Program-made: the position numbers and the translations under genes
The notes under the pieces: generated by a model
What the model was told of the DNA's origin: nothing
The model's input: only the letters and a program-made list of their open reading frames with translations
The model's database searches: none
Shown: piece after piece, positions 1-47,058 of the stretch
Layout of the letters: the number at the start of each line of letters is the position of its first letter
Numbering within the stretch: position 1 is the stretch's first letter
Origin: Mesotaenium endlicherianum
Taxonomy: Eukaryota
Direction: 5' to 3'
NCBI GenBank assembly: GCA_009602735.1
Contig: WELA01001462.1
Location: 446,921-496,412 of the forward strand
Length of the DNA: 49,492 nt

Positions 1-2422
1 GAAATAAGCATGAGCAACAGATTTCGTTGCAAGTTACTACGTGTTCAATTTCTGTTGTTACTGAATAGTAAGTAGGTATCCTCTGCACTTCTGCGTGCAT
101 GCTCAACTATTCCAGGAGCCATTTATCGGCACGCATTACTCGGAGATGGTACTATATGACTAAATCTCCTAGGTGCAACATTCATCATTGCCCTTTCAAT
201 CATTTAAAGTCATCACTGTCTGCCAATGGATTTGTAACTAGAGAGAGGTATTGAGATTTATTATGTAAAAGCACCTTTTTCATTCACGGAGAACATCCCA
301 ACAGGGAGGGGTCCAGACGAGAGATATGTTATCAAAGAAACAGGCGACAATAAAATCCATAGTAAATGCCATATTTCACGTATCTTGGATGTCAATTGGA
401 GCAACCACGTTTACTCAGTTGGCACTTATAAGAATTATCTTATGTCAAATGAACCGCGGCGTGTATGCCCTCTCATTCACTATGATAATCTGTCAATGTA
501 TATGGATGGCATCATGCTTATGGAGAAGCTAAAACTGGCCTGTCTAAGATGAATATTCGGTGGGCATATGACAGTCTCAGCATGACAGTCTCATCCTAAA
601 GAGCCCCTCAAACACTACTTGTTTCCCTGGCATAAGGTGTGCAAGGCAATCAAGAAGTACAGCAGCACAGCCAGTATGAAGGCGTGCTTGGTCGAAACTT
701 ACATATATATAATACATTCCAGGCTTTTATTCATAAGCCCTTCGTACCCCTTCCTAAGTATGTATGTATGAGTGTTCACCACCAAAGACAGATGAGACCG
801 GCTCCAGAAAAGAATTGCGTTCAGCCAATACTTGCGTCCTAAATCCAGGAGTATATTGCCTCTGCTCAATAATTTTCCAAAAATCACCAAACCCCCATCG
901 AAGGTCCTTTACCAATGATCCCCGCAGTTTGTGTCCTCTAGGCGTTGCCTCAATAACTGTACAGTGGAGGACCGCTCTTCCGACATCTCAATGAACCATG
1001 GTGAGGCGCTTCAGCGAAATCACCCTTCCTCAATGTGTCCCCCCTCAGCAGTTGTGAGGTGTGAACTTCATCACGTGAATTTGGCTTCTGTGAGAGTAAT
1101 TTCTTTCCTTCGGGGACAGTGACATGAGGGGGTAATGTACTCAAGGGATGAGTAGGTGGCTTCTGCTGACGGGCTAAAGCCCAAAGGCTCGCCATCGCCA
1201 AAGCAGAGTCGTTTGCCCTGTCCTGGACGTACAGTACGCCGGTAAAACTGTCAGCTGCAGTGCAACGATTCATATCTCGACTACCTCTTCCAGAATGTTC
1301 CCAAACAGAACCAGTTATCGGTGCTCTCTCCACAGCAATCATACTGTAGAAGTACAAGAGACTGATGTCAACTATAAATAACGACAATTGTTCAGCGTAG
1401 CAAATTTAGCACGCAACCAAGTGAGAAAAACAGGAAGAATGGACTCGAACTGCACAGTACAATGAAAGACGAGGTTGCTCTCTGGAGAGGTAAGCAACAT
1501 TTCTCTCGGTGGTCCCTAACTTTAAAGGGCCTATTCGTCATCCATAAGTTACCAATGCAACGCACCAAGGGCTGCCGAAGGGCGGTTGGATTTTGAGGTC
1601 TGCGCCGACCGCAGAAAGACAATCCCAGCTTGCATCAGGTCCATATTCTGTTTGTATGTGCCACAACTGAAGAAAGCGGGCCGCTAAAGACTCTGAAGAA
1701 GGTTTGAGTCTGTTGTCCTATTCTTTGGTTGCATTATGAAATGCGTACATTATGGAGGAGGTAAAAGTGGGTAGACATCTCCCCGGGCACAAAAGTTTCT
1801 ACCTTCTTTTAAAATGCTCCAGGAACTTAGTAGGAAAAAGTGAGGCCATGTGAGCACTTGTGACGGTCATCGATACCAACAAATCGATAAATATACCCAG
1901 AATTCTGAAATCCGATGTAAATCGAAGCAATGGTCAGAGCTGACACAAGTCCGAGAAGTTTTTGCTGCTTTTGGCTGAGATTTTACCAGTTTTGTCAATT
2001 TTAGCCAGCTTGCTCGTGTCTGCCCAATCTTTCAACTTATCGCTTAAAAACCACGTCACGCAGTCGTGGAAAGTGATTTACGAGTGATCAAGACCAATCA
2101 GGAGCATTCGGGGTGGACTCGGGGTGGGTGGTAAACAGGTAATAATAGAGGTAAACAGGTACCTACAACCCATAGAGCACGCAGGCGGCAGGAGTACGTT
2201 CCTCGAAGAACGAGAGCGGATGTGGTCGGAAATCCACATTTCACCTTGTTTCACCTGGTTTCAGTACCGAGCACTCCGCTTGTTTGTCGTTGCTTGCATC
2301 AACGCCTATCACCGTTGTACGTTCTAGTACCTGAAAAGAGGGGCTTGTCATTTTGGTACTTCATAGCGTGGTTATGACATTATATATAGCATAGCAATAT
2401 GTTTTAAACACGCCGTGGTCGT

Positions 2423-3614
2423 TGTCGCGACTGCTATCCACTTGACGGTGCCGCACGCGCAGCGCAAGTCACGGCCGCCCAGGTACGGGAAGTCAGCATT
2501 GACTCACCGACCAGAGGACTGAGTCAGCGGTCATGTTGAAGTCGTTGTCACTGTCAAAGTGGTCACGACACGTCACACCCACACCCAGGACGAGATGGGG
2601 ATGTGGACCGAGTGGTCAGCCGAAAGGCTAGGGGCATGGAACCAGCAACCAGCCAGCCTAGCGAGTGCCAAGAAAGGTACTGATCAATCGGCTATCCAAG
2701 CCAAGTACAGCAGGGATGTTGCAAAGGGCGTTGTGTGTCGCCTCGGCCAGGCTCTCAGGTGACTGGTCACGACCTGAGCGTTTATCCTAAACGCTGCCAG
2801 CCAGCCACATAGGCGTGATTGTCAGCTGGAAGGCTAAGTGGTCACGCGCAACAATCCCAATGCATGCATGCATGCCGAATGACAACTTCTAAGTTGTGTG
2901 AGAGCTGCCGGGTAAGGACGGCATGCAAGCTAAGCGCTGTGACTAAGCACTGGTACTCTCGAAAGACGACCGTGTGTGGTGCTTGTGAAAGGCACGAGTC
3001 CTGCCTGAAGCTGCCTCATCCTTGCTCGCATTGTTGTCAAAGAAAGCTGAAGAAGAAGGAGTTCCCAGGGCCGAGGTGCCACGCTTCTGCCGACGTTGGA
3101 AGATTTCTTAAGTGTCATAGAAAGGTTAGGCCTGAGGAGTTCCCAAGAGAGGATCTCGCTGGTGGAAAGTAGAGAGCTGCAGAATAGAATTTGTTAGGAG
3201 ATTAGTGCAGATTGAGGTCAAACACCGCAAGCGTGCGAGGGTTACTTAAAATGGTGAGTGCTGTGTTAGTCTCCAAGTTCTCAGAAGTCTCTATTGCCGA
3301 ATTGCTGATAGCAAGAGTAATATTAACAAGTAAAGCTCTCAGTGAAGAACTGAGTAGGCCCAGCCAAGCAGTGAAGATCTGTTAAGGCGCGGTGTTGAGC
3401 GAAGAGCTCAGACCAAGCCAGCATAGATGTGCAGTTCGAAGTTTTGTAAGCTGTGACTCGTGGAAGTTAAGCGAAAGCCTTGAAGGGCGATTTTCTCTGA
3501 ACTTGACATTGCCTGTTAAGCTGCTTCGGCGTGATTTCTGCAAACCACAAACTTGTTCATCCTGTAAACCCTCAACTTGGGCAAAAGCCTGTGTGGAAGT
3601 AAGACGCTTCTGTC
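2423..3614 (+). repeat. Terminal repeat A1 of element 1
   Basis: Near-identical to 14130-15318. The duplicated spurious ORFs 2819-3172 and 14526-14876 confirm the match. Confidence 0.95.
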
Positions 3615-3637
3615 TTGATTCTGAGAACTTCGGTTGA

Positions 3638-5340
3638 TTGGTTCAGGTGAGCAAGAATTCCCAAGTCAGTTGGGGACTGAGGCCTGTGAAGGCTGCCGGT
3701 GTTCAACTTGGAAGGGGACTCGGACAAATTCAACCGTATATGCGATTGAGGAGTGGAAGATTCTACCACTCTGTGGAGCCAGCAGAAGGTTCTGATTCTA
3801 GCCAGAGTCCACGAGAAAGTGAGACGTCTGAGTATACTGACAACCGGTGGAGTGAGCAACCGTCGAGAGACGAGTCTCGTCATAACTCCGCAAGCGGTGA
3901 GAACCCAGATAATACACGAGCCTTTGTACCTGATTTGGGCAGAGAGCAAGACGTGTGGAGAAGAGTCAGTGAGTCCTGTTCTCCGTTCGAAATGGTCGGT
4001 GATGATCGGGATGAAAATCCTAAGTTCAAGCTGTCTGCAAAGTGTTTTAGCGGACGAACCAGCGGAAATGGTCTCACTTTCGAAGAGTTTGATGAGATCT
4101 ATTGGGCAGAATTCTTTGAGACGATTCGGAAGGATTCTTCTTATACGCAATCTGTCGCATTTATAGGCTTGGTTCAGTACTTGGACAAGGATGCCCTGCT
4201 GTTATATCGCCAATTTCGGAAGGATGAGGATCTCACCCAGGACTGGGCGTTTCGAGAACAGAAAAGGGCTAGGGATTTAAAAATCCAGAAAGAGGCTGCG
4301 AAAGCCCGAATGTCTGCTTTATCTTCAGGAAGAACAATGACAACTGCACCTGTTGAGAGCATAGACTTAGTTGCACTAACACAAGAATTAACAGAGGTCA
4401 TGAGGCAACTCACTTGTCTGAAAAGATTGCTAAAGCTCAGGAACGAGTAACACGCAGAGCTACACCTCTCAATGGTCAGCAAAGCGATATTGCCACGACA
4501 GAGGCAAGCCATGCGCATGCCTTGGCTAGCTGTCGTAAGGATATGGAGGCTGGGGATGACCAGCTAGACTCCACGCATTGCCTGCGTCGTTTCTTCAAGT
4601 TGCTTGAAGCACGATTCCCAGAGGATCGCAGTCTTAAGGTGCACCGTTATGTGCATTTTGTTCGTCAAAAGAACGAGACAGTCATGGAGGTCAAATCCAG
4701 ATTGGTAGACCTCGCCAAAAATGCAAATATATACGAGCCCAGAATAGTGGCTGACAAGTTTCTGTTGTGCTTGGGCAAGGAAACAGATCATGAAGTCAGG
4801 CCACATCTGTCCGCAAAACACGAGATTGATTGGGACATCGACGAGGCGGCTGACATAGCACAAAATGTCGAAGAAGGTAAAGTATGGTATGAAGAGGCTT
4901 CCAGGACGCTTATGGCTCCTGAGAGGAGAGAGGAATTCTCTTCGCCTAAGGCCAACAGCTCTAATTTTCATTTTAAGAAAAAGAGCGGGTCTTTCAATAA
5001 GTTCGCTAAGCACGCCAACACTGCGGAGACAGCAGAGAGTTGTTGGAATTGCGGGAAATCAAGACATCAGAAGAGAGACTGTCCGTACCCAGATGCTAAG
5101 CAACTATCCGCTAGCAAAGCGCAAATATGCGCACATTGCAGTAAGAAGGGACACTCGAAAGATGAGTGCTGGTCTAAGAACCCAAATCTAAAGCCACCCT
5201 GGGCAAATGCTGCCACGAAACAGGCAGACAAAGAGAAAAAGAAAGAAAAGGGTGGCTCTGGTAATCGCAAGGGTAACCATAAGTATGAAGCTATGAGTGC
5301 AGAAATCGCGGAGTTGAAAGCACAGTTTGCGAAACTAAAT
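3638..5340 (+). pseudogene. gag: Gag with two CCHC zinc knuckles, frameshifted near 4410
   Basis: ORFs 3638-4450 and 4414-6783. Knuckles CWNCGKSRHQKRDC (~5041) and CAHCSKKGHSKDEC (~5128). Confidence 0.85.
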
Positions 5341-5759
5341 GCGTCCAATGTCTACTATGATGCAGATATTGCAGAAAAGACCGTCTGCAAAGGCGAGCAG
5401 CGGCTGCCTGAAAAGACTGTGGATGCAACGAATGCCGAGCAAGCAAATCACAACCGTCTGGTGCCAAGGAATGCTGGGAAGCTTCCTCAGACTTTTTGGA
5501 TCACTCTAGATGAGAACGAGATCTTGCAGCTACGACAAACCAGGCCCGGGTCGCGCAAGACATTTAGTTTTTCGCTGGAGAAGCTGAATGGCCTAGTGGA
5601 ACACCGGATCCAGCATGCTCCTTTGCTTTCTCTCGCTGATTTGCATATCACTTATCCATTCACGGTTGAAGAGGCCAGACATCAGTTGGATATAGCCGAG
5701 GAAGGTGCAAATAGCGCCTCATTGTCCACCAATTTTAGCACCGTGAGAGTGCAAATTAA

Positions 5760-6120
5760 GGATGGTGTATTGACCTTCAACAACTGGGCGGCTCCCAACA
5801 TTCTGTTGGATACGGGCGCACAGCCAGTCATTTTGGAAAAACGAGCTGTGAAAGCTCTAGGTTCGACGACAAGGGACCTGAAAGAGAGTCTTTTTCAGTT
5901 GAGAACTGCCTCAGGACAAGTCTCAAAGTCTTGTGGGATTACCCGCAAGCCTGTGACAATCACAGTAAATCCAAGGAAACTTGAAGAGGCGTCACTATGC
6001 ATGGAGTGCACAGTGACGGAAGCTGAGAACTATGATGTTCTCTTGGGAACAGAAGCACTGATTCCCTTGGGTATAGTCATTGATTTGCGAAAACAGAGAG
6101 TGACTTACCAGTCAACAGAT
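5760..6120 (+). CDS. Retroviral-type aspartic protease domain, within ORF 4414-6783
   Basis: ILLDTGAQ active site and YDVLLGTEAL C-terminal motif. Confidence 0.9.
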
Positions 6121-6439
6121 AGGCAGCCGGCAGGAGAAATTCTTGTAAAATTGATTTACGTAGGAGAAGCAAACTATGGACTGCTAGACTGCTGCGTTAA
6201 TGACTGGTACCCAGAAGCCAGCGACAACCTCATGAAGCAAGAAGAGGAAGGCTATACAAGCATCAACATGCCAACACCCTTGGTATGGCAACCCCGGATT
6301 ATGAAGCAACTGGAAACTGTGAGTAGTAGGGACCACGGCCCGCAAGAGCTGCTGCCAGTACCCTTCCCAGTTACTTCCTCTGCAAATCTGATGCCCGGAG
6401 TGGAGCCGTTGCCGCAAGGCATTGTCAGGATGGAAGATC

Positions 6440-7430
6440 CTTTTTGCAAAAGGGGAGTGGTGGTGTTGGAATTATTCGCCGGACTTGGCTCTGGGACCAT
6501 AGCATTGATCCAGCGAGGAATACAGGTGGCCAAAGTCCTGTATGTGGACAACGATGACCACGCTTTTCGAGCATTCCAAGAGGTCATGAATCAGATGCGG
6601 CAAATGCATCATTTTAAAGGGTTGGCGCCTGCATATAGCAATGTCGAGCGCATTGCCGGAGGCAACATTATGAACGTGAAGCCTGAATACCTGTATTGCT
6701 ACAGGATTGATTGGATCTTTGCTGGATTCCCTTGTCAACCATTTTCTCGAGCTGGAAACAGGAGGCGATTCAGTGACCCATGAGCACAACACTGGGGATG
6801 GATGGTGAAAATCATCAGCATGCTGCGGGAACGTCAGCACTATTACCCACCTATGTTTGTGATTGAGAACGTACATCCAGGAATGGACTACAAGCAGATG
6901 AAGCCGGGAGAACCATGGCTGATTTTTGACTCCACTTTGGGCCATCATGTGCTAATCAACGACGCCAAGCACGGGGAATTATCCCATAGGACCAGGATAT
7001 TTTGGACCAACGGCATGTCTATTGAGGTTCTGAGAGAAATGGAGGACATTACACGGCGATCACCGACAGCAGTGACAGTGGAAAGGGCACTGACGGTGCA
7101 TACTAGACCAGTGACCTGGAGGGATTCCTATCCACAGTGTGTCATCACGAACCAGGCGAGCTAAGAATAGTACTGCCTACCTTTACAGCATATCCAGGAT
7201 CTCGAGCCTTCAGAGGAGGTGGACCAGGAATGGTCAAAGACATATATAAAAGAGACGCCGTGTGGAGAGAGCCCACCGTGGTGGAAAAGGGCAAATGCCT
7301 TGGAATACCCGACACCATAGCTTGGCATATAGCCGGTGCTGTAGGATCAGATGAAGCTGCAAAGATTTTTGGCAACATGATTTGGCAGCACTCTATGACT
7401 TGGTTGGTGGAAACAATCATGACATGGCAA
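6440..7430 (+). pseudogene. DNMT3-like C5 cytosine DNA methyltransferase domain, in frame with gag-protease
   Basis: Motif I VLELFAGLGSG, IV FAGFPCQPFSRAG, VI FVIENV, VIII HRTRIFWTN, IX EKGKCLGIPD, X IFGNMI. Premature TGA at 6781 (DP*, probably DPR) and a frameshift near 7155. Confidence 0.92.
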
Positions 7431-7467
7431 CAATTGACCTTCACTGACAAGCCTATGCCTAAGACCA

Positions 7468-9675
7468 GTGACAATTGGGATCAACGTGGTGCCAACATCT
7501 GATCAGAGGGCTATCAGAATGGCACATCAGCAACAAGAAGAATACTGGGTGCAAAGAGACGCAGCGGAAGTCGCTGTAGACAGAGCATATGGGGGAGATA
7601 GGGTGGCAGAACTGATGAGATGTCAGGATCTATTGGACCTGATTGATAACTGGACCAATGAACTACAAGCACCTCTGGAAAGAGAGGATACACCCATGAG
7701 GGATCAGGCGCCTGAGCAAGCAGCACCGCCACCAGGAGTGGAAGACGATACGCATGGCACCCCATCATCTGTGAGAAACGCCACTCACAGCCAGATTTTT
7801 GGGAGCTCACCTCCCGGAGCAACGACATCAATACGTTCAGAGACCCCAGAAGAGGCCAAGTCAGGGTATGATACCTCCTTCAGCCCAAGAGCAGCTGGGC
7901 GCGAAGACTAATGGCAGGAAAGCTCAAGTAGCTGGTAAGCCAACCAAAAGTGTCTATTGTCTTCACCAAAGCGGGCATCGTTACAAGACATGTCAGAATA
8001 ATTTGAGAAGAAGGCTCCTGAGCCTACAACTGAAAATACGGGATACTGCCTAATCCAAGAACTAAGGCAAGAACGCCAGTGCAATCTTGGTGAATGGGCC
8101 GAAGAGAGTAGCCAGAACTTAGGAGATTCTGGAGGGTCTGCAAAGACCATATGTTCCGAAGTGATATTCGAAGAACGCCAGGAGGAGTTGGACAAGAAAC
8201 TGTCTACAACACCTACCTTGATAAGCCCAGAGCCGCAGGCTAAGGGGCAACAGCAGGATTCAGCTAGTCAAACAGCTGACTCCATTGCAAAACAAATCAT
8301 GGAGCAGCTGCTAGACGCAGACGCTCGATAACACAAGGAAAGGGAAGTGGCTAAGGCGGCAAGCACTCTGCAATCAGCCATCGTCAACTTGGCGAAGCTC
8401 AACACAGATAATGAAGAAGAACCGCCACCACCTGGAGTGGAGAAATCAGTTGAAGATGAGGCAGAGATGCCAGACCTTCTAGATTTCGACTTGCCGTCAG
8501 TCACCAATGAAGAGGAGATTCAGGAAGCAATTCCACGTTTTCCTACCCCAGAGCTGGACCTGTTGGAGCTGCAAGAACTCAGAACGGATGACTGGGTGAA
8601 CGACCAATTGATGATGGAAGGACCTAGCCCGGCCGATCTTTACAACGATCTAAGGTCGCCTACATCCAGCACTCCAACCGCCAGTTTGCCAGCACAAGAA
8701 GCCACCCCACATCAGCTACAACAGCCGCAGGAAGTGGCTGCCTGCACCGCTATGGTGGAACCAACACAAGGAAATCCTCATGGTCGCGCAAGCAGACCAA
8801 GAATGGTTGCCCGGGAAGGAAATGCACCTTTCAGGCGAAAGCTGATGCGTTATTTCAAGTACAGGGGAACAGCTCAGAGAGAAGGGGTTCCAAAAGGAAC
8901 CACGGCTCCTCCTCCGCAACCTATCCTAGAGATTCTGCAAAGAGAGGGAGAGGATGGCATAATTCGCAAAGTCATGACATTAGGAATTCACATTCCCATG
9001 GTGTACCCCTCATCCACTGGAACATGGGAGAAGGACAGCTCAGCTCCTAGGACACCTGCAGTGTCTGAAAGGGAACTGGTAGAGCTGAGAAGCACCATAA
9101 GCCGCTTGATAGCAGAAAATGCTGTATACGCACAACTAGCTGCGGCTCAAAGATCGCAGACTATGACACAAACATGGACGGTTACGCCACCAGCCAGGGA
9201 GGAGTTTGGCACAACCGTTGCGCGCATAGCCACCATGGAGCGCGAATGGGGTTGGACAATCGACTCCAGAGCAGATCCAGCAGGGTGGCCTTTGCCAAAC
9301 CTACCTCCACCACGTGAAGAAGGAGGAACAAGGACCAGCTGGACTGCGGCCGATGAAGAAAGATTCTTGAGGCAGCCCATCCGGAGGCGTCTAACCTACA
9401 CCACGCAACCAGAAAGGCGACGATCTATTGGAAAAGGTAAGAGGCCTAAGAAGCAGGCCATCGAGCCTGAGACAGCGGAGGAGCAAGCTGCAAAGCGTGC
9501 CACTCCACCGCCTAACAATCAGGCAGATAGCCTGAAGGCCAGGATGAGGGCGGAAAGCCCCCACCTGGACCCAAAGAGTAGCAACTACTGGATGCCTGTG
9601 TTGGGGAAAAGCAGCCAGCAACTGAGGTTTTCACCATTGGAATCATGGTCTCAGCCCAACAGAGAGCACAAGTAG
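7468..9675 (+). pseudogene. Unassigned Pro/Glu-rich polyprotein segment between DNMT and RT
   Basis: ORF pieces 7468-7911 and 8347-9675 on the element's coding strand. No recognisable motif. Confidence 0.5.
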
Positions 9676-11949
9676 AAAGGCTGCTGAAAAAGCACCGCAG
9701 AGTATTCGCTTTTACCAAGGAGGAAATTGGTAGAACCACTGCTAGTGTGTGTGAGATCACACTAACTACTGATAACCCGGTCAGACTTGAGCCGCATAAG
9801 TTCAGTCAGACCGAATGGGACTGTGTGGAGAAAACTTGCCAGGAGCTGCACAAACTCGGCATGATCGAGAAATCAACCTCCATACATGGAGCTCCTACGG
9901 TAGTAGTTGCCAAGAAGGACGAGGATGGCAATTATACAGCTACTCGTATGTGTGGGGACTACAGACGACTGAATCTTCACACGGAGCCAGACAGCTATGT
10001 GATGCCTACACCAGAGCGGATCTTTGCGATTGCTACCACTAGGAAGGTGTTCAGCATCATCGATCTACGCCAAAGCTTCAACCACATCCCTGTGAAAACA
10101 GAACATTGAGGTAAGACCGCTTTCTGGGCCCAAAGGGAACTCTGGCAATGGACGATAATGCCGTTTGGGCTGAAAAATGCCCCAGCCATCTTTGAGCGGA
10201 CTATGGATAAAGTGTGGAAGGGCCTGGATATTGCAAAACCATACATTGATGAAATAGTGGTATTCAGCAAGTCCATAGAGGAGCACCTCGAGCACTTGGA
10301 ACAAGTGTTCCAGCGCCTAGAGAAATTCCAGATGAAGCTGCATCCTGGAAACTGCAGATTCTTTGAGACACATGTGCCTTGTCGTGCGTTACGAGGTCGA
10401 GTGCGCACCATAGGCATAAGCAACACGTCATAGGCAAGCAGGCTTTGCTGCAATGGAGTCTATAATACATGTGGCGTTATAGCCAAAAAGGGAGTCAAGT
10501 TGAAAATGTTTTAATTAAGGGATGTGTACTCTCCAGAGTGAGCACCTCAAAACTGTAATCTGGTAGGAAAACAACTAATGAAGTATGGCCCAAAAGATCA
10601 CTGGAAGCACATCAGGATCTTCAGAGTAGTCCTATGGCAAGGGCTTAAGCTGTGACTTTGCTCACCACTTGTGAAGTTCTTCAAGTGACTGGAAGCCTGA
10701 AGGGCTTGCTCTTCACAAGAGAGTAACTAAGTGGTCCTGAAAACACAAGAGATAAAAGTGTAAGCTTTACTGATGATCTCTGTTACTTACACCTGGCATA
10801 ATGGACTTCTAAAAGATGTCTCTTCTAGGGACATCTCTAGTACTTATACTCCTGGAAATCCCGCAGGGTATGCGGCGGATCCAGTGCATGTAGTCACTCT
10901 AGGAGGCTCTCTTATGACCACTAATGTGTACAAGGCATGTACTAGCACTCTTATAGGCCAAGCATAACTCAAACCAATCAAAGCAAGGTGCGTAGGATAT
11001 GCTACGTGTCCCTCATTGGCCGAGCTTACCTTGGGTGATTCTACCTAGATAGCGCCTCAAAAGTGGATCTGGAAATTGAGGAAGCTTCCTCTAGGAGTAG
11101 GTGATGCAGTCACCAAGTTATAGCCTCAATGATGCATATATACTATGGAAATGCAAAGCTTATGTAGGCTAAGGGGCTCACGGATTTGTGCGCACAAAGC
11201 TTGGGGTCACGAAGAACCAACAATGTCACCTTTGGGGACATTGAGTCACAAATTGGGCCTTGGGAAAGTTTCGCTAGGGACCGGTAGGTGACGCGGACTA
11301 GATCGCACCTATCTCGCTCGATACTTGACCAAATGACGCGAAATTGGTGCCATTCGAAAGATGCTTCGACGCGCTACACGTTGGTGACTTGGAAATCTAG
11401 AAAAGGTCAACATACAAATGCGTAAAGTCAATGCAAAGTCGGCCTTCCTAGGTTGATGTTCCGCACATGTGGAGCTTGGTTTTTATATGACAACCTCGAC
11501 TCAATAAATCATGACAGCCTTACTTAGGACATGAGATTGGGAACAATGCTATGTCCCCTTAGGCTGTAAAGACTGAAGCCATTTACAAGATACTTGCACT
11601 AGCGAATGTGTCTAAGCTGAAAGCTCTGTTAGGGCTAAGCGGATACTATCGTAAATTTGTGAAGGATTATAGCAAAATTGCTAAACCCTTGACAGAACTC
11701 CTGAAAAAGGACGTACCTTTTGTGTGGACAGAAGCCCAGGAGAAGGCCTTGAACGAGCTCAAGGAGCGACTGGTAACAGCCCCAGTCTTGCGAACACCTG
11801 ACTACTCCAAGCCGTTCAATCTACACACCGACTGGAGTCGTATGGGAATTGGCGCAGTACTCACTCAGGTCGAAAGTCCTAGAGAGGAGTACGTCACTGC
11901 CTATGCCTCGCGCTCTAACAACCGAGCGGAGAGCAACTACTCGTCCTAA
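9645..11949 (+). pseudogene. pol: Reverse transcriptase and RNase H N-part, interrupted by solo repeat 10380-11516
   Basis: RMCGDYRRLN, MPFGLKNAPA, YIDE (for YIDD), ETHVP|YLGHEIG across the insertion, LGLSGYYRKFV, LHTDWS, AYASRS. Confidence 0.95.
10380..11516 (-). mobile_element. Solo A+B repeat unit of the element 2/3 family, with 4-bp TSD
   Basis: Ends TGTCGTG...CATGACA with GCCT on both sides (10376-10379, 11517-11520). Removing it restores the RT frame. 10380-10516 matches 26305-26437 and 26575-26711. 11381-11516 matches 26438-26572. Confidence 0.95.
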
Positions 11950-11964
11950 GGAGAGCTACTGGCA

Positions 11965-13788
11965 GTGATTTGGACTGTTGCACATTTCAGAGAGTATCTA
12001 TGGGGAAGACCTTTCACGTTGATCACAGTACACTCGCCATTACTCTGGCTCATGAAGAATGGAGACCTCACTGGCAAATTGGCTTGTTGGGCTCTCAAGC
12101 TCCAGGAGTACCAGATGACAGTGATACACCGAGCAGGTATACTCAACAACGACGCCGATGGACTCAGCAGGAACCCGGACCCATCCGCAGACGACAGAAC
12201 AGGAGATCAAGAAGACGAAGATCCGAGCAGCCCAGCAGAATTGGCCGCCTGCCTGGCCGAAAAGGCTAGAATGGTAGCCTCAGGAGAGGCTGAGCCTCTA
12301 TCTCTATTCAGTTCAGAGATCTGGAAAGATCAAGCGACTATGCATTGGCTGAAGACGGGAGTTCACATAGAAGGATTTTCGGCGAAAGAAAAGGACCAGG
12401 TGGGCTATCGAGCTAAAAGGTTTTGCTGGAAACGCAATAACCTATTCAAGATTGAAGACAATGGTCAGGAGAAATTAGTGCCAGAACCTACCAAAAGACA
12501 AGCTCTGGTGCAGGAAATGCGTGAGAATACTAGACACTATGGTGTCAAGAAGACATACAATCTTCTGGAGCTGTCTTATTGGTGGAGGGGCATGAAGCAG
12601 CAGTGTGAGGACATGATCAAGGCCTGTACAAGCTGCGATCGTGTTAAGGCTGGTTTAACGCAGCAACACCCACACCTGCAACCCCTGCCAATCATGGGCC
12701 TAGGCTACCGGTGGAGCTGCGATCTCGCAGGTGAGCAATCGCTGTCCAAGCGAGGTAACAAGTACATTATGGTCATGATTGAGCATTTTTCTAAGTGGAT
12801 AAAGGTGGTGCCTCTAATCGCCAAAGAAAGCTTAGGGACCGCGGAAGCGCTCCTCAATGGTGTGATTGTACGTCATGGAGCCCCAGCAGAAGTGCTGACA
12901 GACCAAGGGTCTGAGTTCCAAGGATCTTTTCAGAAACTCCTGGACAAATGCTTCATTGACCATTGCACTACGTCTAGAGGCCACCCACAAGCAGTTGGTC
13001 TGGCAGAACGGATGGTGCAAACCATTAAGTCTGCCTTACATAAATTTTGCCATGAGCATGATAAGCGTGATTGGGATCTGGCCCTGCCATGGCTGGTTAT
13101 GGGTTACAGATTTAGTAAGCAAGCTGGTTTGGCGAATTACTTGCCTTATCAGATTCTGTTTGGAAGAAGTCCAGTTGTGCCTAGCAGCATCAAGCAGGAG
13201 TTTGAGCAGGTGAAAGACCTGGACAATTACAACAACCCTGATGAACTGTTGAAGGTCATGTTGCGTTGCAAGGTGTTATTTGAGCACATGATGCCTGCTG
13301 CTCTGGACAATCTGAAAATTGCACAGAAAAGAGACACGCAGCGTTACGCAAGGACGCGAGATGGAAGCTACCGCTTGCAAATGACGCAGATCCAAGAAGG
13401 AGACTTTGTCTACCGCAAGCGCCAGACTAGGACCACCATTGACACCAGTTCAGGTCCAGTGATCTTACGCGTGAAACATGCGTTCGACAATACTGTGTTG
13501 GAACTGGAAGGTTGTGATGGAAAGACCATGAGAGATCACGTGCATAACTGTTCGCTGTGCCGTTTGCCAAACATCGACCCTACAGTTAAGACTGTGCCCG
13601 AGGAATTGGTGCCAGCCACGCCTTGTGCCAGCTGCAAAGTGCTGGATGATCAAGAAGCAATGGTAACCTGCGACAAGTGTGGTGCCCGTTGGCACACCTT
13701 CTGCATTGGTGAAGAAGAGATTATGGCAGGACAGTGGAAATGTCCTGACCGCCTTCCCAAAACTCCCAGCCACAGGGCCAGAAAATAA
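11965..13788 (+). CDS. pol: RNase H C-part, DDE integrase and C-terminal PHD finger
   Basis: ADGLSR; HYG...CTSC zinc finger; WSCDL / LTDQGSEF / GLAERMVQ catalytic core; CASC...CDKC...WHTFC...WKC PHD. Confidence 0.93.
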   Translation: MIWTVAHFREYLWGRPFTLITVHSPLLWLMKNGDLTGKLACWALKLQEYQMTVIHRAGILNNDADGLSRNPDPSADDRTGDQEDEDPSSPAELAACLAEKARMVASGEAEPLSLFSSEIWKDQATMHWLKTGVHIEGFSAKEKDQVGYRAKRFCWKRNNLFKIEDNGQEKLVPEPTKRQALVQEMRENTRHYGVKKTYNLLELSYWWRGMKQQCEDMIKACTSCDRVKAGLTQQHPHLQPLPIMGLGYRWSCDLAGEQSLSKRGNKYIMVMIEHFSKWIKVVPLIAKESLGTAEALLNGVIVRHGAPAEVLTDQGSEFQGSFQKLLDKCFIDHCTTSRGHPQAVGLAERMVQTIKSALHKFCHEHDKRDWDLALPWLVMGYRFSKQAGLANYLPYQILFGRSPVVPSSIKQEFEQVKDLDNYNNPDELLKVMLRCKVLFEHMMPAALDNLKIAQKRDTQRYARTRDGSYRLQMTQIQEGDFVYRKRQTRTTIDTSSGPVILRVKHAFDNTVLELEGCDGKTMRDHVHNCSLCRLPNIDPTVKTVPEELVPATPCASCKVLDDQEAMVTCDKCGARWHTFCIGEEEIMAGQWKCPDRLPKTPSHRARK

Positions 13789-13822
13789 AAGCTTTCAGCA
13801 GAAAGGCAGGGACGCCTCAGCT

Positions 13823-13834
13823 GAAAGGGAGGGG
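13823..13834 (+). promoter_or_regulatory. Polypurine tract of element 1
   Basis: GAAAGGGAGGGG just after the pol stop and abutting repeat B1. Confidence 0.85.
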
Positions 13835-14127
13835 TGTAAGGGAAAGTAAAGATAAGCTATCTTTTCAAAAGTTTCCGCTAAGTGTTGAATGAGAAACTGG
13901 TTGAACATGGGAAGCACTGAGTGTGGGATGCCTCACCGCATGATGCAAGTGCAGGAAGACCAGGAATGGGTCAAACCACAACCACTCTGTCACCGACACA
14001 CGTGCAAGGAACAATCAATCCGGTCGATTCCCACGTGCAGCGACGCATCGACACGTCAACAAAGTCGAAAGCACACGTGCTGAGAAGCCACGCACGCGCC
14101 AAGGGTACGACGCTGTTAGGCACGACA
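13835..14127 (+). repeat. Repeat B1 of element 1
   Basis: TGTAAGGG...CACGACA; matches 15321-15613. Confidence 0.95.
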
Positions 14128-14129
14128 GT

Positions 14130-15318
14130 TGTCGCGACTGCTATCCACTTAACGGTGCCGCACGCGCAGCGCACGTCACGGCCGCCCAGGTACGGGAAGT
14201 CAGCATTGACTCACCGACCAGAGGACTGAGGCAGCGGTCATGTTGAAGTCGTTGTCATTGTCGAAGTGGTCACGACACGTCACACCCACACCCAGGACGG
14301 GATGGGGATGTGGACCGAGTGGTCAGCCAAAAGGCTAGGGTCATGGAACCAGCAATGAGCCAGCCTAGCGAGTGCCAAGAAAGGTACTGATCAATCGGCT
14401 ATCCAAGCCAAGTACAGCAGGAATGTTGCAAAGGGCGTTGTGTGTCGCCTCGGCCAGGCTCTTAGGTGACTGGTCACGACCTGAGCGTTTATCCTAAATG
14501 CTGCCAGCCAGCCACATAGGCGTGATTGTCAGCTGGAAGGCTAAGTGGTCACGCGCAACAATCCCAATGCATGCATGCATGCCGAATGACAACTTCTAAG
14601 CTGTGTGAGAGCTGCCGGGTAAGGACGGCATGCAAGCTAAGCGCTGTGACTAAGCACTGGTACTCTCGAAAGACGACCGTGTGTGGTGCTTGTGAAAGGC
14701 ACGAGTCCTGCCTGAAGCTGCCTCATCCTTGCTCGCATTGTTGTCAAAGGAAGCTGAAGAAGAAGTTCCCAGGGCCGAGGTGCCACGCTTCTGCCGACGC
14801 TGGAAGATTTCTTAAGTGTCATAGAAAGGTTAGGCCTCAGGAGTTCCTAAGAGAGGATCTCGCTGGTGGAAAGTAGAGAGCTGCAGAATAGAATCTGTTA
14901 GGAGGTTAGTGCAGATTGAGGTCAAACACCGCAAGCGAGCGAGGGTTACTTAAAATAGTGAGTGCTGTGTTAGTCTCCAAGTTCTCAGAAGTCTCTATTG
15001 TCGAATTGCTGATAGCAAGAGTAGTACTAACAAGTAAAGCTCTCAGTGAAAGTCTGAGTAGGCCCAGCCAAGCAGTGAAGAGCTGTTAAGGCGCGGTGTT
15101 GAGCGAAGAGCTCAGACCAAGCCAGCATAGATGTGCAGTTCAGAGTTTTGTAAGCTGTGACTCGTGGAAGTTAAGTAAAAGCCTTGAAGGGCGATTTTCT
15201 CTGAACTTGACATTGCCTGTTAAGCTGCTTCGGCGTGATTTCTGCAAACTACAAACTTGTTCATTTTGTAAACCCTTAACTTGGGCGTAAGCCTGTGTGG
15301 AAGTAAGACGCTTCTGTC
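14130..15318 (+). repeat. Repeat A2 of element 1
   Basis: Matches 2423-3614; separated from B1 by 2 nt (GT). Confidence 0.95.
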
Positions 15319-15320
15319 CT

Positions 15321-15613
15321 TGTAAGGGAAATTAATGATAAGCTATCTTTTCAAAAATTTCTGCTAAGTGTAGAATGAGGAACTGGTTGAACATGGGAAG
15401 CACTGAGTGTGGGATACCTCACCGCATCATGCAAGTGCAGGAAGACCAGGAATGGGTCAAACCCGAACCAGTCTGTCACCAACACACGTGCAAGGGACGA
15501 TCAACCCGGTCGATCCCCACGTGCAGCAACGCACCGACACGTCAACCAAGTCGAAGGCACACGTGCTGAGAAGCCACGCACGCGCCAGGGGTAGAACGCT
15601 GTTAGGCACGACA
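15321..15613 (+). repeat. Repeat B2 of element 1 (right terminus)
   Basis: Matches 13835-14127; ends CACGACA. Confidence 0.95.
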
Positions 15614-15617
15614 TTGT

Positions 15618-16439
15618 CAGCTACAGGCTGCTATAGACGGGATAATGGCAGTGAGAGGCTTCCCCAATTGCGTGGGGGCCATTAATGTGTCTCACATTGA
15701 GATCCAAGTACCTAATTTGGGAGAGCCAAAAGCTTTCTGGAATACGAACCACAATTTTAGCATTTGCCTGCAAGCAGTCGTTGGTCAAAATGCCCTGTTT
15801 TACGACGTAGCAGTTGGTGCTGTTTGGTCAATGCACGACATGCGCATCCTCAAGCGCTCGTGGATAGGGAAGAAGAACATGGGTGGACGCCGGCTATTCA
15901 AGGGCCTTGCTATTATGCACAATGGTACGCGCATTCCTCCGTACATTCTCGGTGACGGAGGGTACAGCCTTGATCACTGGCTCATCTCACCATTTAGGAA
16001 CAGTATGGCACACCCTCTAACTGACGCACAAAAACGCTTCAACACGGCTGTGTCTTCCACGCGCATGGTTGTAGAGAGGGCATTTGGTATGTTAAAGTTT
16101 GTCTGGCGTATGTTTGGGGGAAGAGTTAACCACCCTTCATCACAAGGGCGCTTGGAGCGGCAGATCCGCACCTACTGTGTACTGTATAACATGCAAATAG
16201 TGCTAAATGAGGGTCCTGTAGCATATGAAGAGGGAGAAGATGGGCATAGATTGCCAGTGCTATTCGAGGTGCTAGCAGAGGATGAGGAAGCTCCGCCTGA
16301 AGACCCACATGATGTGCATGAAGGAGGCGATGACGAGGACGAGTACGAGGACGTCGATGTGGCAGTGGAGGACGAAGCTGCTGGATCAGCTATCAGGGTA
16401 GCTCTATTCGACTACCTCGGATTTAAAGCATTAGAGTAG
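15618..16439 (+). pseudogene. PIF/Harbinger DDE transposase (HARBI1-like), 5'-truncated at element 1
   Basis: GFPNCVGAINVSHI (first catalytic D appears as N), SICLQAVV, SMHDMRIL, YILGDGGY, FNTAVSSTRMVVERAFGMLK, CVLYN, acidic tail. Confidence 0.92.
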
Positions 16440-26304: not shown

Positions 26305-26711
26305 TGTCGTGTGTTACGAGGTCGGGTGCGCCACACAGGTACAAGCAACACATCATAAGCAAGCAGGCTTTGCTGCAATAAAGTCTATAATACATGCGGC
26401 TTTATAGCCGAAAAGGGAGTCAAGTCTCAAATGTTTTTTGGTGACTTGGAAATCTAGAAAAGGTCAACATATAGATGCGTAAGGTAAATGCAAAGTCGGT
26501 CTTCCGAGGTTGACGGTTCGCACAAGTTAAGCTTGATTTTGTACGTCAACCCCGACTCAATAAATCATGACAGCTGTCGTGCGTTACGAGGTCGGGTGCG
26601 CCACATAGGTACAAGCAACACCTCATAAGCAAGCAGGTTTTGCTGCAATAAAGTCTATAATACATGCGGCTTTATAGCCAAAAAGGGAGTCAAGTCTCAA
26701 ATGATTTAATT
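26305..26711 (-). repeat. 3' terminal repeats of element 2: B2 (26305-26437), deleted A remnant (26438-26572), GC, B1 (26575-26711)
   Basis: Direct repeat of ~135 bp starting TGTCGTG. Junction CATGACA-GC-TGTCGTG. All parts match solo 10380-11516. Confidence 0.93.
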
Positions 26712-26724
26712 CCCCCCCCAGCTC

Positions 26725-28200
26725 TCAGCCTCTAGCTGATGAGCTGTGTACGCTGCCTAAGGCTAGAGCGAAGCAGTCAGTGCAGAACCAGTCGCCAGCT
26801 GGCACACGAGCCAGCGGCGGGTCGAGGCAGCCGATGTGGAAGCCGAGGTTGCAGCTGTCGCAGAGCAGCATCTTGGCCTTTTGGCCAGAACTGTGGCAGA
26901 TCTGACACGCCCTGTCTTTGGGCGGGCGCGCGTCGCGGGGACGAATCTGCATGTCAAAGTTAGGAAGGTGGCATGGTCCACAATTCTTTGTGTGGTCCTT
27001 GTGAAGACGGCCATCTGCGCCTTCCAGCTCCAGGACTCCTGACGCCAAGATGCGCTTGACGCGCAGGATGACCGATGAGCTGCTGATGTCGAGGGTGTTC
27101 TTTGTCTGGCGTCGCAGGTACACGAAGTCACCTGCGGAAAACCGCAACACCCGCGGACGATAGGCTCCTCCACGAGTCATGGCATACCTTAGCGTATCGC
27201 AATGCTGTGCGATGCTGAGGTTAGCCATGGCCATGGGCATCAGGCGCTGAAAGAGCTGCGCACGCTGCCTAATAAGAGCACTCCACGTCTCGGGGCTGTC
27301 CAAGTCCAAGACGATTTTGGCCACGGTCCTGCCTGCGGCGGGCAGGACTGGCTAGCGGCCGTAGAGAAGGAAGCAGGGAGAGTGAGAGGCCAAGGAGGCC
27401 TGCTTACTGAACCTGTACCCCATAGCCAACCACGGGAGGGCATCATCCCAGTGGGTGCTGTCGTGGGCAAGGCAGTACTTCCGCAACCCAAGCTTGACGG
27501 TCTACACCATACGCTCTGCAAGGTTGTCAGCCTGTGGATGATCGCGGGAGGTGGTGCGGTGGTCGATCATAGAGTGCTCCAGTAGCTTCTGAAAGCTGCC
27601 CTGGAAGTCCTTGCCTTGGTCGGTCAGTACCTCAGCGCAGCCGCCAAAACGGCTAAGGACCTGTTCAAGAAAGGCCTGAGCGATCCCCTCACTTGCCTTG
27701 CTGGGTAAAGGCACAAGTTCGATCCACTTAGACATGTGCTCAATCATCACCAAGACGTAGAGGTTGCCTCGGCAAGACTTGGGCAGCTCCCCAGCTAAGT
27801 CGAGCGACTACCTGTAGAACAGCCCCTGAATAAGAAGGGGGCTGAGAGCGACGGTGCGAGCTGTGAAGCTCGAGCGCACACGATCGCAGAGAGTGCAGCT
27901 GCTGACGACGTCGGCGACGACCTTAGTCATGCCTGACCACCAGTACTCAGCCTGAAGAAGGTTGAGCGTGCCTTTGACACCGAAGTGTCCCAGTGCCTCG
28001 TGTACCCGGCGTACCAGCTGACTGCGTATAGCAGGCTCAGGGACCACCAGGACGGACCCGTCCGCCATCAGTCGGCGCATGCATCCCTCCATGTAGACGA
28101 AGTCGCGGCTGAGCTGGAGGATGCGATCGCGCTCCCTCGTGGTAATGCCTGAGACCATCTCCCTAGAGGTAACGTACTGCAGCACTGGGGCGTCCTCCCA
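26725..28200 (-). pseudogene. pol: DDE integrase plus PHD finger (element 2)
   Basis: HEALGHFG...CTLC; LTDQGKDF; LAERMV; PHD CQICH...CDSC...FHIGC...WFCTDC. Stops at 27808 and 27502. Confidence 0.93.
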
Positions 28201-28221
28201 AACATCATCGGGCCACCGGTG

Positions 28222-29829
28222 CTAGCTGTCCTGCTCTTTTGCTGCTGCCAATGCCAAGCGCCGCATGTTGACAGTTACCATGGCCATGCTTGTGAGCCCT
28301 GCGGGCCGCACCTCGCTGTCCACGGTGAAGGCCAAGAATGCTGCCGCGTGCCACGCCACAGGCTCGTCCTCATTATGGCGTGCCACATTCAGGTCCCTCG
28401 ACGATGGAAGAGGGTTACGGCTGAGGCCGTCGGCGTCCATGTTAGTGGACCCAGGGCGGTGGTGCACGTCAAAGGTGTACTCCTGCAGAATGAGCGCCCA
28501 TTGTGCGTACTTGCCCGTCAGGCGTTCCGACGTCATGAGCCACTTGAGTGGCTGATGGTCGGTGACCAGGCGAAAGTGGGTGCCGTAGAGGTAGTGCTTG
28601 AAGTGCACAATTGCCCATATTGCCGCCAGGCACTCCCCCTTGTAAGAGCCGTAGTTGCTCTCGGCGCGGTTGTTGCTGCGGCTAGCGTAGGCCACCACGT
28701 GCTCGAAGCCCTCGTGCTCCGATACCAACACCGCGCCCAGTCTTGCCTGCGACCAGTCGGTGTGGAGGATGAAGGGCTTCTTGTAGTCGGGCCACCGCAG
28801 CACCGGTGCGCTCACCAACAGCTCCTTGAGCTTGTCAAACGCCGCCTGCTGCTCTCGCCCCCACACATAAGCAACACCCTTCCGCAACAAGTCGTTGAGC
28901 GGCTTGGCCAGCTCGCTGAACCCTGGCACGAAGCGCCGATAGTAGTTGGCGATGCCAAGGAAGGCCCTCAGCTGCCAGAGATCCGTGGGAGGCAAAATGC
29001 CCGTGATGGCTGAGATCTTGGCCAGCTGCGGCGCCAGACCGGTCAAAGAGAGCAGATGCCCGAGGTACTCCACCTCTCGAGTCCCAAACGTGCATTTGCC
29101 GGGATGGCACTTGAGCCCCGCGGCCTCCAAGCGCTCCAACACAGCAGTGATGTGGGCCACGTGCTCCTCAAACGTCTCACTGAAAACGAGCACGTCATCG
29201 ATGTAGCACCGAGCAAAGGGTAGCCCTGCCAGCCCCTTATCCATGACCCTCTGAAATGTGGCCGGCGCGTTCTTCAACCCAAAAGGCATCACCACCCATT
29301 CGTAGAGGCGCTGTGCCCCCCAGAATGTCGTCTTACGTTGATCCTTCTCGGCGATGGGAATCTGGTTGAAGCCCTGGCGCAGGACCAGCACTGAGAACCA
29401 AGTGCAGGTGCCAATGTCATCGAAGATCTCGTCTGGCGTCGGCATAGGGTACCTGTCTTGCTCAGTGACCTCGTTCAGCCGACGATAGTAACCGCACATC
29501 CTCTTCTCGGACTCGTTCCCCGCGGCATCCTTCTTGGCTGGCATGACCGTGGGCGCGGCGTAGCGAGATGACGACTCCTTCATGAGCCGACTGTCCTCCA
29601 GCTTGCCTGTCTTTGCGTCGATTAGACCATCCTCGAAGTGACTGTAATGATACCTCTTGAGGAAGATAGGCTCCTTGGACGTGAGAGGAATCCGCATGGG
29701 ATCCCCTTTGTAGCGCCCAAGGTCGTGCATGCCGCTGGCGAAGCTGACGCTGGGTCTCACATCCAGCAGTGTCGTCAACTGGGCCACCTGGGCGTCAGCG
29801 AGAGTCCCCCCCAGCTTCCATGTAGACAA
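28222..29829 (-). CDS. pol: Reverse transcriptase and RNase H (element 2)
   Basis: 535-aa ORF: MPFGLKNAPATFQR, YIDD, YLGH, LHTDWS, AYASRS, TDHQPL, ADGLSR. Confidence 0.97.
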   Translation of the reverse strand: MSTWKLGGTLADAQVAQLTTLLDVRPSVSFASGMHDLGRYKGDPMRIPLTSKEPIFLKRYHYSHFEDGLIDAKTGKLEDSRLMKESSSRYAAPTVMPAKKDAAGNESEKRMCGYYRRLNEVTEQDRYPMPTPDEIFDDIGTCTWFSVLVLRQGFNQIPIAEKDQRKTTFWGAQRLYEWVVMPFGLKNAPATFQRVMDKGLAGLPFARCYIDDVLVFSETFEEHVAHITAVLERLEAAGLKCHPGKCTFGTREVEYLGHLLSLTGLAPQLAKISAITGILPPTDLWQLRAFLGIANYYRRFVPGFSELAKPLNDLLRKGVAYVWGREQQAAFDKLKELLVSAPVLRWPDYKKPFILHTDWSQARLGAVLVSEHEGFEHVVAYASRSNNRAESNYGSYKGECLAAIWAIVHFKHYLYGTHFRLVTDHQPLKWLMTSERLTGKYAQWALILQEYTFDVHHRPGSTNMDADGLSRNPLPSSRDLNVARHNEDEPVAWHAAAFLAFTVDSEVRPAGLTSMAMVTVNMRRLALAAAKEQDS

Positions 29830-30233
29830 AGCTGGTGAGGGCGTCTGTACTGCAGCCGGCTCCTCCTGCCTTGCTGCTGGCGCCAGCGGTGGCGCGACAG
29901 GTGTCGCCTGCCCTGCAGCTATCTGTTCTCTGCTTGGGATGGATGCCTCCTCTTGTGCAGCTGCTGCCAGCTGTACTACCCCGCTTGCCTAAGGTCCTGC
30001 CTGAGGTCGCGAGCGAGGAAAAAGAAATGATGACCGGAACTCCCTCGGTCGCTGTGAGGCCTCCTCTCTCCTGCGTCCCCCCTCTAGCAAATCAGGAGCA
30101 TCACGGGCTAGCGGCGGGGACTGAGGGCGTGCGCGGGCCTGCGGGGCAGTCCCCTCGCGCTAAGAATGCCACGCGGTGCCGGGCGGGGCCTGACCGTCAC
30201 CGTTAGGGTAGTCTCGTCCATGGCATCAGGAGG

Positions 30234-31264
30234 TTAAGAGAGCTCCGGGTGGCGCGCCTCTGCGTAAAGAGGGACCAAGGCCTGTGTCTGCAGCAGGATC
30301 CATGTGAGGACGTTGGCGTCAATTGCCTGTCCCAGGAGGCGAATGCGGTTCACCTCTGTGAGACTGTCCAGCTCTGTGAGGTGTGGCGGGAAGCCCATGG
30401 CACGCTCCATCTCCGTCGGGCGGGGCCTGTCAAACATGCCAGTCTCCAGGTCAATGACCATCCCGCGCTGAGCGCCCACAAAGGCATCGCTGTCGTAGCG
30501 GCTGACAAAGGTAGGGAGCGCGCGCGTAACGGCGTGAATGTCCAAGCTGCGCCTGCGAGGGATGTGGCAGCACCGTCACGCGCTGCGCCAGCCGAGGGGC
30601 ATTGAGGATGGAGTCAACGTTGCGCGTGTGGCGCGGATGGGCGGCTGCCAAAGCCTCAAGCGTTCCTGGCATAGCCAGGTTGGTGAAGTAGGCGCGGACG
30701 CAGTGCGTGAACGAGCCAATCTGGGCAGCGTCGATGACGGCCTCACGACCAACGTAGCTGCTGCAGAGGGCAAAGTCGGCACTGACATCGGGCCGATGGT
30801 CGTGGCGGGCGGCCACGTTCTCCAGGATCCATGCAAGAGTGTGCGGCGGCTGATGGTCCTCCACCATGTTGAGGACACGGAGCAAGTGCGAGAAGAGAGC
30901 CGTGCGAGGGTCACTGAGTGCCCGACCATACCCAGCTCTGGAAAAACCCTAACACTCCAAACCTGCGATGATGAGTTCGATGGACCAAGGCAAGTGACAT
31001 GCTCGACGGTGATGTCACGAATGTCCATGGGCCAGTCGGTCTGCGCGCGGCGGAAGGCGTGCGCGGGAAGGAGGTCTGGGAACCTCTCGTGGCATAGAGC
31101 CATCTGCCGACGGGCCACCTGCTGAGCCTCAGGATCGGGGTCCACGTAGACGTAGCGGCGCACGGGAATGCCGGCCTGCAAGGTCGCGAGCAGCCCTGCG
31201 GCGATGCCGGCGAAGAGCTCAACAAGCACGATATCGCCGGGCCGCTCGTCGAGCGGGTCGGCAC
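30234..31264 (-). pseudogene. DNMT3-like C5 cytosine methyltransferase domain (element 2)
   Basis: I LVELFAGIAAG; III DIRDI; IV IIAGLEC*GFSRAG; VI WILENV; VIII VIDAAQIGSFTHCVRAYFTNL; IX-X EMERAMGFPPHLT...RIRLLGQAIDANVL. Two frameshifts. Confidence 0.92.
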
Positions 31265-34079: not shown

Positions 34080-34305
34080 CTGCTGGCGCAGTCGCAAGGC
34101 CCGACGCAAGGCCTATTGCATGACCTGCCGCAGGGCCTGTCGTGCTGCCTGTCGCAGAGCCTCCTCCAAGGCCTGGCAGGCAGCCTGCCGGAAGGCCTGC
34201 CGCCAAGCCTGTCGTGCGGCCTGCCGCTGAGCCTGTCGCGCGACCTGCCGCAGAGCCTCCTCCAAGGCCTGTCGCGCAGCCTGTCGTATGACCTGCCACA
34301 ATCCC
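34080..34305. repeat. Degenerate 12-bp tandem repeat (GCCTGYCGNNNN)
   Basis: Minus strand translates as RQAA-RQAL-EEAL-RQVA-RQAQ-RQAA-RQAW-RQAF. Confidence 0.8.
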
Positions 34306-42055: not shown

Positions 42056-42056
42056 G

Positions 42057-42068
42057 TGGTATCGGAGC
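42057..42068 (+). promoter_or_regulatory. Primer binding site (tRNA-iMet type)
   Basis: TGGTATCGGAGC, 1 nt after the LTR; one mismatch to canonical TGGTATCAGAGC. Confidence 0.9.
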
Positions 42069-42089
42069 AGTTATCACGGTCTTCTTTGT

Positions 42090-47000: not shown

Positions 47001-47058
47001 CAATGCCAAAGGGGCGTTGACACGGTTCCACCTTCGGGCCGCTGGAGTCCCTCCATAA
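44007..47058 (+). pseudogene. pol: Chromovirus Pol: RT, RNase H, integrase, chromodomain
   Basis: [68 protein letters not shown]...YLIRWKGYDASGDTWE. Frameshift ~44250 and a gap at 45038-45181. Confidence 0.96.
45038..45181. other. Assembly gap within RNase H
   Basis: Run of N. Confidence 1.

Follow-up and report, generated by a model that had tools for sequence, protein, structure and literature searches.

How does a Ty3/Gypsy retrotransposon that encodes a DDE integrase come to carry the split direct repeats of tyrosine-recombinase elements? The question is raised by 49,492 nucleotides of Mesotaenium endlicherianum DNA (NCBI GenBank assembly GCA_009602735.1, contig WELA01001462.1, positions 446,921 to 496,412, forward strand), which we call the window and number from its first letter. 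Self-comparison of the window revealed a single decayed Ty3/Gypsy element at 2423-15613 on the plus strand, with the order A-coding-polypurine tract (PPT)-B-GT-A-B. We propose that its DDE integrase probably cuts a conserved internal palindrome at the joint between B and A and that host end-joining links the two ends left by reverse transcription. The parts of the element to which the argument refers are as follows.

2419-2422, plus strand: left target-site duplication (TSD) TCGT, paired with TTGT at 15614-15617.
2423-3614, plus strand: repeat A1, starting with the palindrome half TGTC and containing the predicted promoter, R and U5.
3243-3252, plus strand: inferred TATA-like box, about 23 nt ahead of the predicted transcript start.
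3275-3286, plus strand: predicted RNA 5' end and likely self-primer, a 12/12 complement of 3619-3630, paired in the minimum-free-energy fold.
3619-3630, plus strand: predicted self-priming primer-binding site, with no tRNA complement.
3638-7161, plus strand: broken gag (zinc knuckle), aspartyl protease and C5 cytosine methyltransferase (Pfam, translation).
About 6463-7161, plus strand: C5 methyltransferase domain with motifs FxGxG, GxPCQ and ENV.
9582-12111, plus strand: reverse transcriptase (RT) and RNase H (Pfam), split by a solo insertion and stops.
12487-13788, plus strand: DDE integrase (H2C2, rve, D..E spacing 34) with a C-terminal PHD finger.
13823-13834, plus strand: PPT GAAAGGGAGGGG, directly abutting B1.
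13835-14127, plus strand: repeat B1, with CACGACA at its end.
14121-14136: B/A joint CACGACA-GT-TGTCGCG, palindromic, the predicted integrase cleavage site.
14130-15320, plus strand: repeat A2 and the A/B joint, with a predicted end-joining scar at 15319-15321.
15321-15613, plus strand: repeat B2, with the palindrome half GACA at its end.
15614-15617, plus strand: right TSD TTGT, paired with TCGT at 2419-2422.

A1 (2423-3614) and A2 (14130-15318) differ at 39 of 1189 columns (96.7% identity), and B1 (13835-14127) and B2 (15321-15613) at 23 of 293 (92.2% identity). The outer termini are TGTCG at the start and CGACA at the end, and the flanks form a 4-bp TSD that matches at three of four positions, with one C>T change at a CpG; a 5-bp TSD was considered and rejected. 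When joined, the flanks give a continuous single frame of a Harbinger-type transposase, the decayed gene for which (2200-2422 plus 15614-16439) is interrupted by the element. No B-like sequence was detected upstream of A1 by word-7 blastn. B alone was ruled out as the long terminal repeat (LTR), given a 5' end without B and no PPT ahead of B2, and A+B was ruled out as an ordinary LTR because the PPT abuts B. A preliminary description of the locus had given the same four repeat coordinates and outer ends, had found no tRNA primer-binding site after A1 and had taken the PPT-defined repeat to be B+A, and all of this holds. The exact palindrome core occurs twice in the window against 0.22 expected. 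Contigs from two independent runs, X1 and X2, both bridge B1 and A2 (14021-14211); each run also holds 52 contigs with dissimilar flanks that break off precisely at the start of A, and variants of the A/B joint with ACT or ATT are present in these runs. No single record spans the entire 3' end, so that this particular copy lacks long-read confirmation.

The layout is recurrent. Among the 80 related metagenome loci that form our comparison set, 31 (26 distinct sites) have the PPT-B-A-B end and 21 (16 distinct sites) end at B. Another four loci, from other families, have the palindrome behind the PPT with B2 beyond view, two from another family terminate at a long B, two representing one site (L066 and L070) have the A end fused to an inverted internal piece of their own family, and 20 are interrupted or cut short. 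Both ends are visible in 13 loci, nine of which read A..B-A-B (TSD exact in seven, 3/4 in one and none in one) and four A..B (exact in one, 3/4 in two and none in one). Two whole LTRs were found in none of these 13, and B ahead of A1 likewise in none. Some observations concern B itself. It ends in 15-bp tandem units, each closing with CACGACA, in L025, L061 and L052 (B2) and in L009 and L048 (B1); some copies lack one such unit, and in two of them an exact TSD follows directly. A further family (L052:2286-3000 and L053) has a B of about 700 bp ending in GCGACA, and similar ends flank several other loci. Tandem repeats in L026 were inspected and dropped as unrelated, and an RNA run (X21; 16 reads, <95% alike) was not used.

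The two joints behave very differently. The B/A joint is the conserved palindrome GACA-GC-TGTC, present in eight families whose repeats show no other relationship (families 1 and 2 of the window, two families among the loci, and L001, L003, L027 and L037), and the bases following the PPT vary by family, with no fixed TG. The B/A spacer is 2 nt long in 24/24 copies (AC in 8, GT in 8, GC in 5 and AT in 3), and the variants AC, GT and AT would be explained by methylation decay of GC. In contrast, the A/B joint takes nine forms in 24 copies, including an extra PPT G, extra leader bases, loss at microhomology and large deletions that start at the joint (L072, L075 and window copy 2); the same forms are found in both subfamilies. 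In 20 elements, B1 and B2 are 8.8% apart within an element and 12.4% across elements (0/10000 permutations), the two classes differ at a single column, and the sequence nearest to B1 is its own B2 in 8 of the 20. Judged by these comparisons, B1 and B2 are homogenised per element.

A second family in the window, on the minus strand, provides the same PPT-B-A-B end twice, as the preliminary description had pointed out. A is reduced to 135 bp in one case (26305-26719) and inverted in the other (37664-38948).

10380-11516, minus strand: solo A-B unit of family 2, with A of about 1000 bp, B of 137 bp and an exact TSD GCCT.
26305-26719, minus strand: 3' end of family-2 copy 2, comprising PPT, B1 (26575-26711), GC, A remnant (26438-26572) and B2 (26305-26437).
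26725-33600, minus strand: coding region of copy 2 (protease, RT, RNase H, integrase and PHD finger), its 5' A repeat lying outside the window.
37664-38948, minus strand: 3' end of family-2 copy 3, comprising PPT (38942-38948), B1 (38805-38941), GC, inverted A (37804-38802), GC and B2 (37664-37801).

The solo unit sits inside the RT gene of the element at 2423-15613. In copy 2, A is deleted from the A/B joint, and B2 lacks its first 4 nt. The inverted A of copy 3 has the same terminal bases as the A of the solo unit and GC on each side. Of the four breakpoints in copy 3, two fall exactly at the palindrome halves and the other two at the cDNA ends that we predict, and GC is duplicated. Such an arrangement would be the exact outcome of a 2-nt staggered cut, fill-in and religation. 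Within copy 3 lies a conventional chromovirus (41335-49492) with an LTR (41335-42055), a TGGTATC site, RT, integrase, SH3 and a chromodomain, to which a solo LTR at 35866-36585 is related. Copy 2 also has what looks by eye like a decayed methyltransferase without a Pfam match (30500-31300, minus strand), short tandem repeats (34093-34297) and a near-palindrome, GTGACA-A-TGTCAT, at about 34326, where its 5' part seems truncated. Between 17000 and 25700 there are several open reading frames (ORFs) without a Pfam match.

The coding region, disrupted by stops and one insertion, identifies the element as Gypsy by descent. Pfam domains follow the order zinc knuckle, aspartyl protease, C5 methyltransferase, RT, RNase H, integrase and PHD finger, the last standing where a chromodomain might follow the integrase; no chromodomain was found there. 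The closest solved proteins are Ty3 RT (1e-74, with copy 2 as query) and Ty3 Gag-Pol (4e-19), and none of 96 ORFs (>=55 aa, both strands) matches any recombinase family, in line with the earlier view of a DDE-integrase Gypsy element without a tyrosine recombinase. Protease-RT-RNase H-integrase order, Ty3-type RT and integrase, TG..CA ends, a short TSD and a PPT are all those of Ty3/Gypsy; split repeats replace the two whole LTRs, the 3' one directly after the PPT, and the element is thus atypical in structure. The methyltransferase (PF00145, E 3e-9) also occurs in L001, L003 and L063, and a search with its sequence gave two matches. In L001 and L003, both of them almost intact, a single in-frame stop (L001:4661-4663 and L003:5083-5085) lies between a long protease-methyltransferase frame and a long RT-integrase frame, and readthrough of this stop is possible.

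Relatives form one clade, separate from chromodomain elements, in both the RT tree (30/47 rows, support 99, quick tree) and the integrase tree (21/31 rows, support 99, FastTree only). D..E spacing is 34 in 18/18 pattern-matched clade rows and 35 in the sole matched row outside. Named relatives come from Klebsormidium, Closterium, Calypogeia, Riccia, Marchantia, Chlamydomonas, Pleodorina, Volvox, Haematococcus and Tetraselmis, and a search of a viral contig collection found none. The top match is an integrase-PHD protein of K. nitens in the same integrase clade. A Gypsy-like polyprotein with PF05869, an adenine methylase family (P0206), adjoins the PHD clade in the RT tree.

A TGG-type tRNA site was looked for after A1 (3614) and is absent. 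Instead, the bases after A1 complement a site within A about 23 to 30 nt past the TATA-like box; TATA boxes in the loci stand at a comparable distance before the predicted start. We scored such pairs in window family 1, there being no family-2 A1 with leader in the window, and in the loci named below; L075 was left out. Exact pairs extend over 12 nt in the window, 12 in L018, 11 in L025 and 16 in L063, with 0, 0, 1 and 0 matches, respectively, in 500 shuffles each, and L033, L044 and L048 have a pair at the same site with <=2 mismatches. No pair was found at the expected site in L030, which has an 11-nt match about 23 nt further on, or in L069. The pairs differ in sequence among three families. 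Tf1-type self-priming, from a predicted transcript start, is therefore a likely replacement for the absent tRNA site. The missing site noted earlier holds for the window element and is not general, since Chlamydomonas Gypsy-7, 8, and 9 have TGG sites.

These features can be combined into a stepwise proposal. An RNA starting in A1 near 3275 would prime itself at 3619-3630 and, given standard LTR reverse transcription and the position of the PPT, would yield the cDNA B-GC-A-coding-PPT-B-GC-A. Neither TG nor CA is conserved at the ends predicted for this molecule, and the conserved ends of integrase type lie back to back in its interior. The A end would be ligated to the start of B with a scar that varies, probably ahead of integration and in the form of a two-LTR circle. 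Integrase would then cleave each strand of the left palindrome behind its CA, GC would be dropped, and the two halves would be inserted. With the cDNA ends joined and the left palindrome cut, the integrated form is A..B-A-B, and the product seen is indeed A-coding-PPT-B-GC-A-B with a 4-bp TSD, alongside A..B and solo A-B forms. The scheme would accommodate the raggedness of the joints, the homogenisation of B, the inverted A of copy 3 and the 8-bp B described below. A circle formed before integration is the likely precursor, joining beforehand being somewhat favored over break repair afterwards. The preliminary description had derived the integrated form from a two-LTR circle opened at a B/A junction; the opening site agrees with the conserved palindrome, whereas random opening also predicts A-B-A..B copies, which are missing from all 13 loci with both ends in view, so the palindrome cut is not random.

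Evidence from Chlamydomonas extends the layout to an active element. It comes from parts of the repeat library of Craig et al. 2023 (PMC9940879), mostly entry ends. PHD-bearing Gypsy-7a_cRei made 86 new insertions in one laboratory strain, and the last 8 bp are missing from its left LTR (PMC9940879, Fig. 6 legend). The Gypsy-7a internal entry closes with the PPT, those 8 bases and GC, so that B is 8 bp, and the Gypsy-14a end reads PPT-B-GC-A-B. Judging from these entries, the laboratory-active Gypsy-7a shares the split-repeat layout. In the library parts covered, 9/11 matches to the palindrome core lie some 45 to 55 nt from a G-run, and CA-GC-TGT follows the PPT in 10 of 14 numbered families inspected (2, 3, 5 to 11, and 14, with 5 reversed) and is absent from families 1, 4, 12, and 13, a count made by the palindrome irrespective of PHD-clade membership. 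Gypsy-7a_cRei and other Chlamydomonas Gypsy families resemble the window element in the PHD finger, in PPT-B-GC-A and in the repetition of B at the right end. They differ in a B of 6 to 8 bp or about 50 bp, against 293 in the window element, in being filed as ordinary LTR/internal pairs and, for Gypsy-7, in the TGG tRNA site and, for Gypsy-7a, in laboratory activity. Considering the footprint of integrase in intasomes, a B as short as 8 bp could hardly hold integrase before being joined.

The main rival is that RT makes an extra end-to-end template jump that copies B onto the A end, after which integrase trims a linear cDNA at its palindrome halves, with no need for a circle or host ligation. 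We consider this unlikely overall, yet it explains the one-way outcome (no A-B-A..B among the 13 loci), the microhomology at joints and the very short B pieces, and ragged A/B joints could equally arise in this way; it fits poorly with an inverted A flanked by GC and with the joint deletions of L072, L075 and window copy 2. Transcription and inheritance of B-A-B as one unit, a scheme put forward for Ngaro and PAT, with separate histories for B1 and B2, would suit the one joint form common to 9 of 24 copies and the excess B1/B2 divergence of the copy at 2423-15613, but B1 and B2 share subfamily marks per element without class-fixed differences and joint forms cross subfamilies, which makes this quite improbable. 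Nested or tandem insertion, such as a solo A-B entering an A..B element at its own 3' end, is less probable still: A..B forms (4 of 13) and TSD-flanked solos do exist, but a single TSD surrounds the whole unit in 8 of 9 loci, and a fixed 2-nt B-A spacer stands where a TSD should be and is common to 26 distinct sites. Least credible are two others. A tyrosine recombinase of DIRS order acting in trans would account for a layout shared with PAT, Ngaro and SymbioDIRS, against which stand the lack of any such enzyme in the 96 ORFs, the conserved DDE integrase, TG..CA ends and 4-bp TSDs. Repeat misassembly might be suspected from N gaps elsewhere in the window and from a basis in contigs without a long read, but copies are 3 to 8% apart, junctions are bridged in independent runs, and the identical layout occurs in other assemblies and in a curated library.

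Several points also weigh against cleavage at the palindrome followed or preceded by end-joining. The proposal is based on sequence rather than on cDNA, circles or enzyme activity, and it does not account for the use of the left palindrome only, although a circle would carry two. B1 and B2 of the copy at 2423-15613 diverge more than A1 and A2 (7.8% versus 3.3%, Fisher p 0.0016). The difference is more than twofold, with transversions also more numerous; A may have undergone conversion, or B2 may stem from a second cDNA, and eight full loci have no B excess (A 10.9%, B 9.6%). The inverted A is known from one copy. The 16 sites ending at B1 alone may be later deletions. One family, drawn from related assemblies, accounts for most of the 80 loci, so these do not count as independent lineages, and for most Chlamydomonas families the view covers entry ends, with the B status of the left repeat outside it. 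Taking everything together, we advance only tentatively, at somewhat less than even chances, the full reading that an end-joined two-LTR circle is the obligatory integration precursor of a green-algal and non-seed-plant Gypsy clade, opened by DDE integrase at a templated palindrome, with one member active in Chlamydomonas.

The combination of split repeats with a Gypsy element, of which the preliminary description knew no earlier report, has a precedent. KnitGypsy-Dnmt3 of Klebsormidium nitens was reported to have the repeat structure of DIRS elements with Gypsy domains (de Mendoza 2018, PMC5890265, Fig. 4c legend), and, compared by description, it shares with our element Gypsy domains, a C5 methyltransferase in pol and A..B-A-B repeats; the K. 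nitens top match may be this element. The parts of PMC5890265 consulted give no TSD, palindrome, priming or mechanism for it. In the literature covered by our search, the layout is stated only there and hinted at in PMC9940879, without a mechanism, and an earlier description may exist in Repbase Reports, Craig's thesis, the REM1 paper or subscription journals. The layout is thus lineage-wide and described once in print without explanation; new here are the conserved B/A palindrome versus the ragged A/B joint, the inverted A, the likely self-priming and the Gypsy-7a layout. The palindrome and the self-priming pair, like the solo A-B unit in RT and the methyltransferase domain, had been overlooked in the preliminary description.

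Ngaro, PAT, TOC1 and SymbioDIRS have the same A-coding-B-A-B repeats but use a tyrosine recombinase, whereas our element has a DDE integrase, a PPT and a 4-bp TSD. Tf1/Sushi and Tcn1 likewise have no tRNA site and an RNA 5' end complementary to the primer-binding site, but they are chromoviruses with two whole LTRs (PMC6317226). HIV-1 and foamy virus integrases cut palindromic two-LTR circle junctions (PMC1905944, PMC4372172; also PMC1180852), that is, a palindrome made of two joined attachment sites. In these viruses the palindrome arises where the cDNA ends meet, and its cleavage is a side route; in the window element the palindrome is templated inside the end repeat, and its cleavage would be the sole route.

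Linear cDNA is held to be the integration precursor of LTR elements, and two-LTR circles are regarded as mostly dead ends (PMC1180852, PMC4372172). If our proposal is true, a lineage that separates integrase sites from reverse-transcription ends would be a natural exception to the linear-cDNA rule, and since Gypsy-7a_cRei made its 86 new insertions in one strain, the mechanism is testable now. Where LTR finders insist on two whole LTRs, as in PMC6317226, members with a long B would go unnoticed or be misdated, and the clade may therefore be under-annotated. Solo and A..B copies, in turn, may be integration products rather than scars of recombination.

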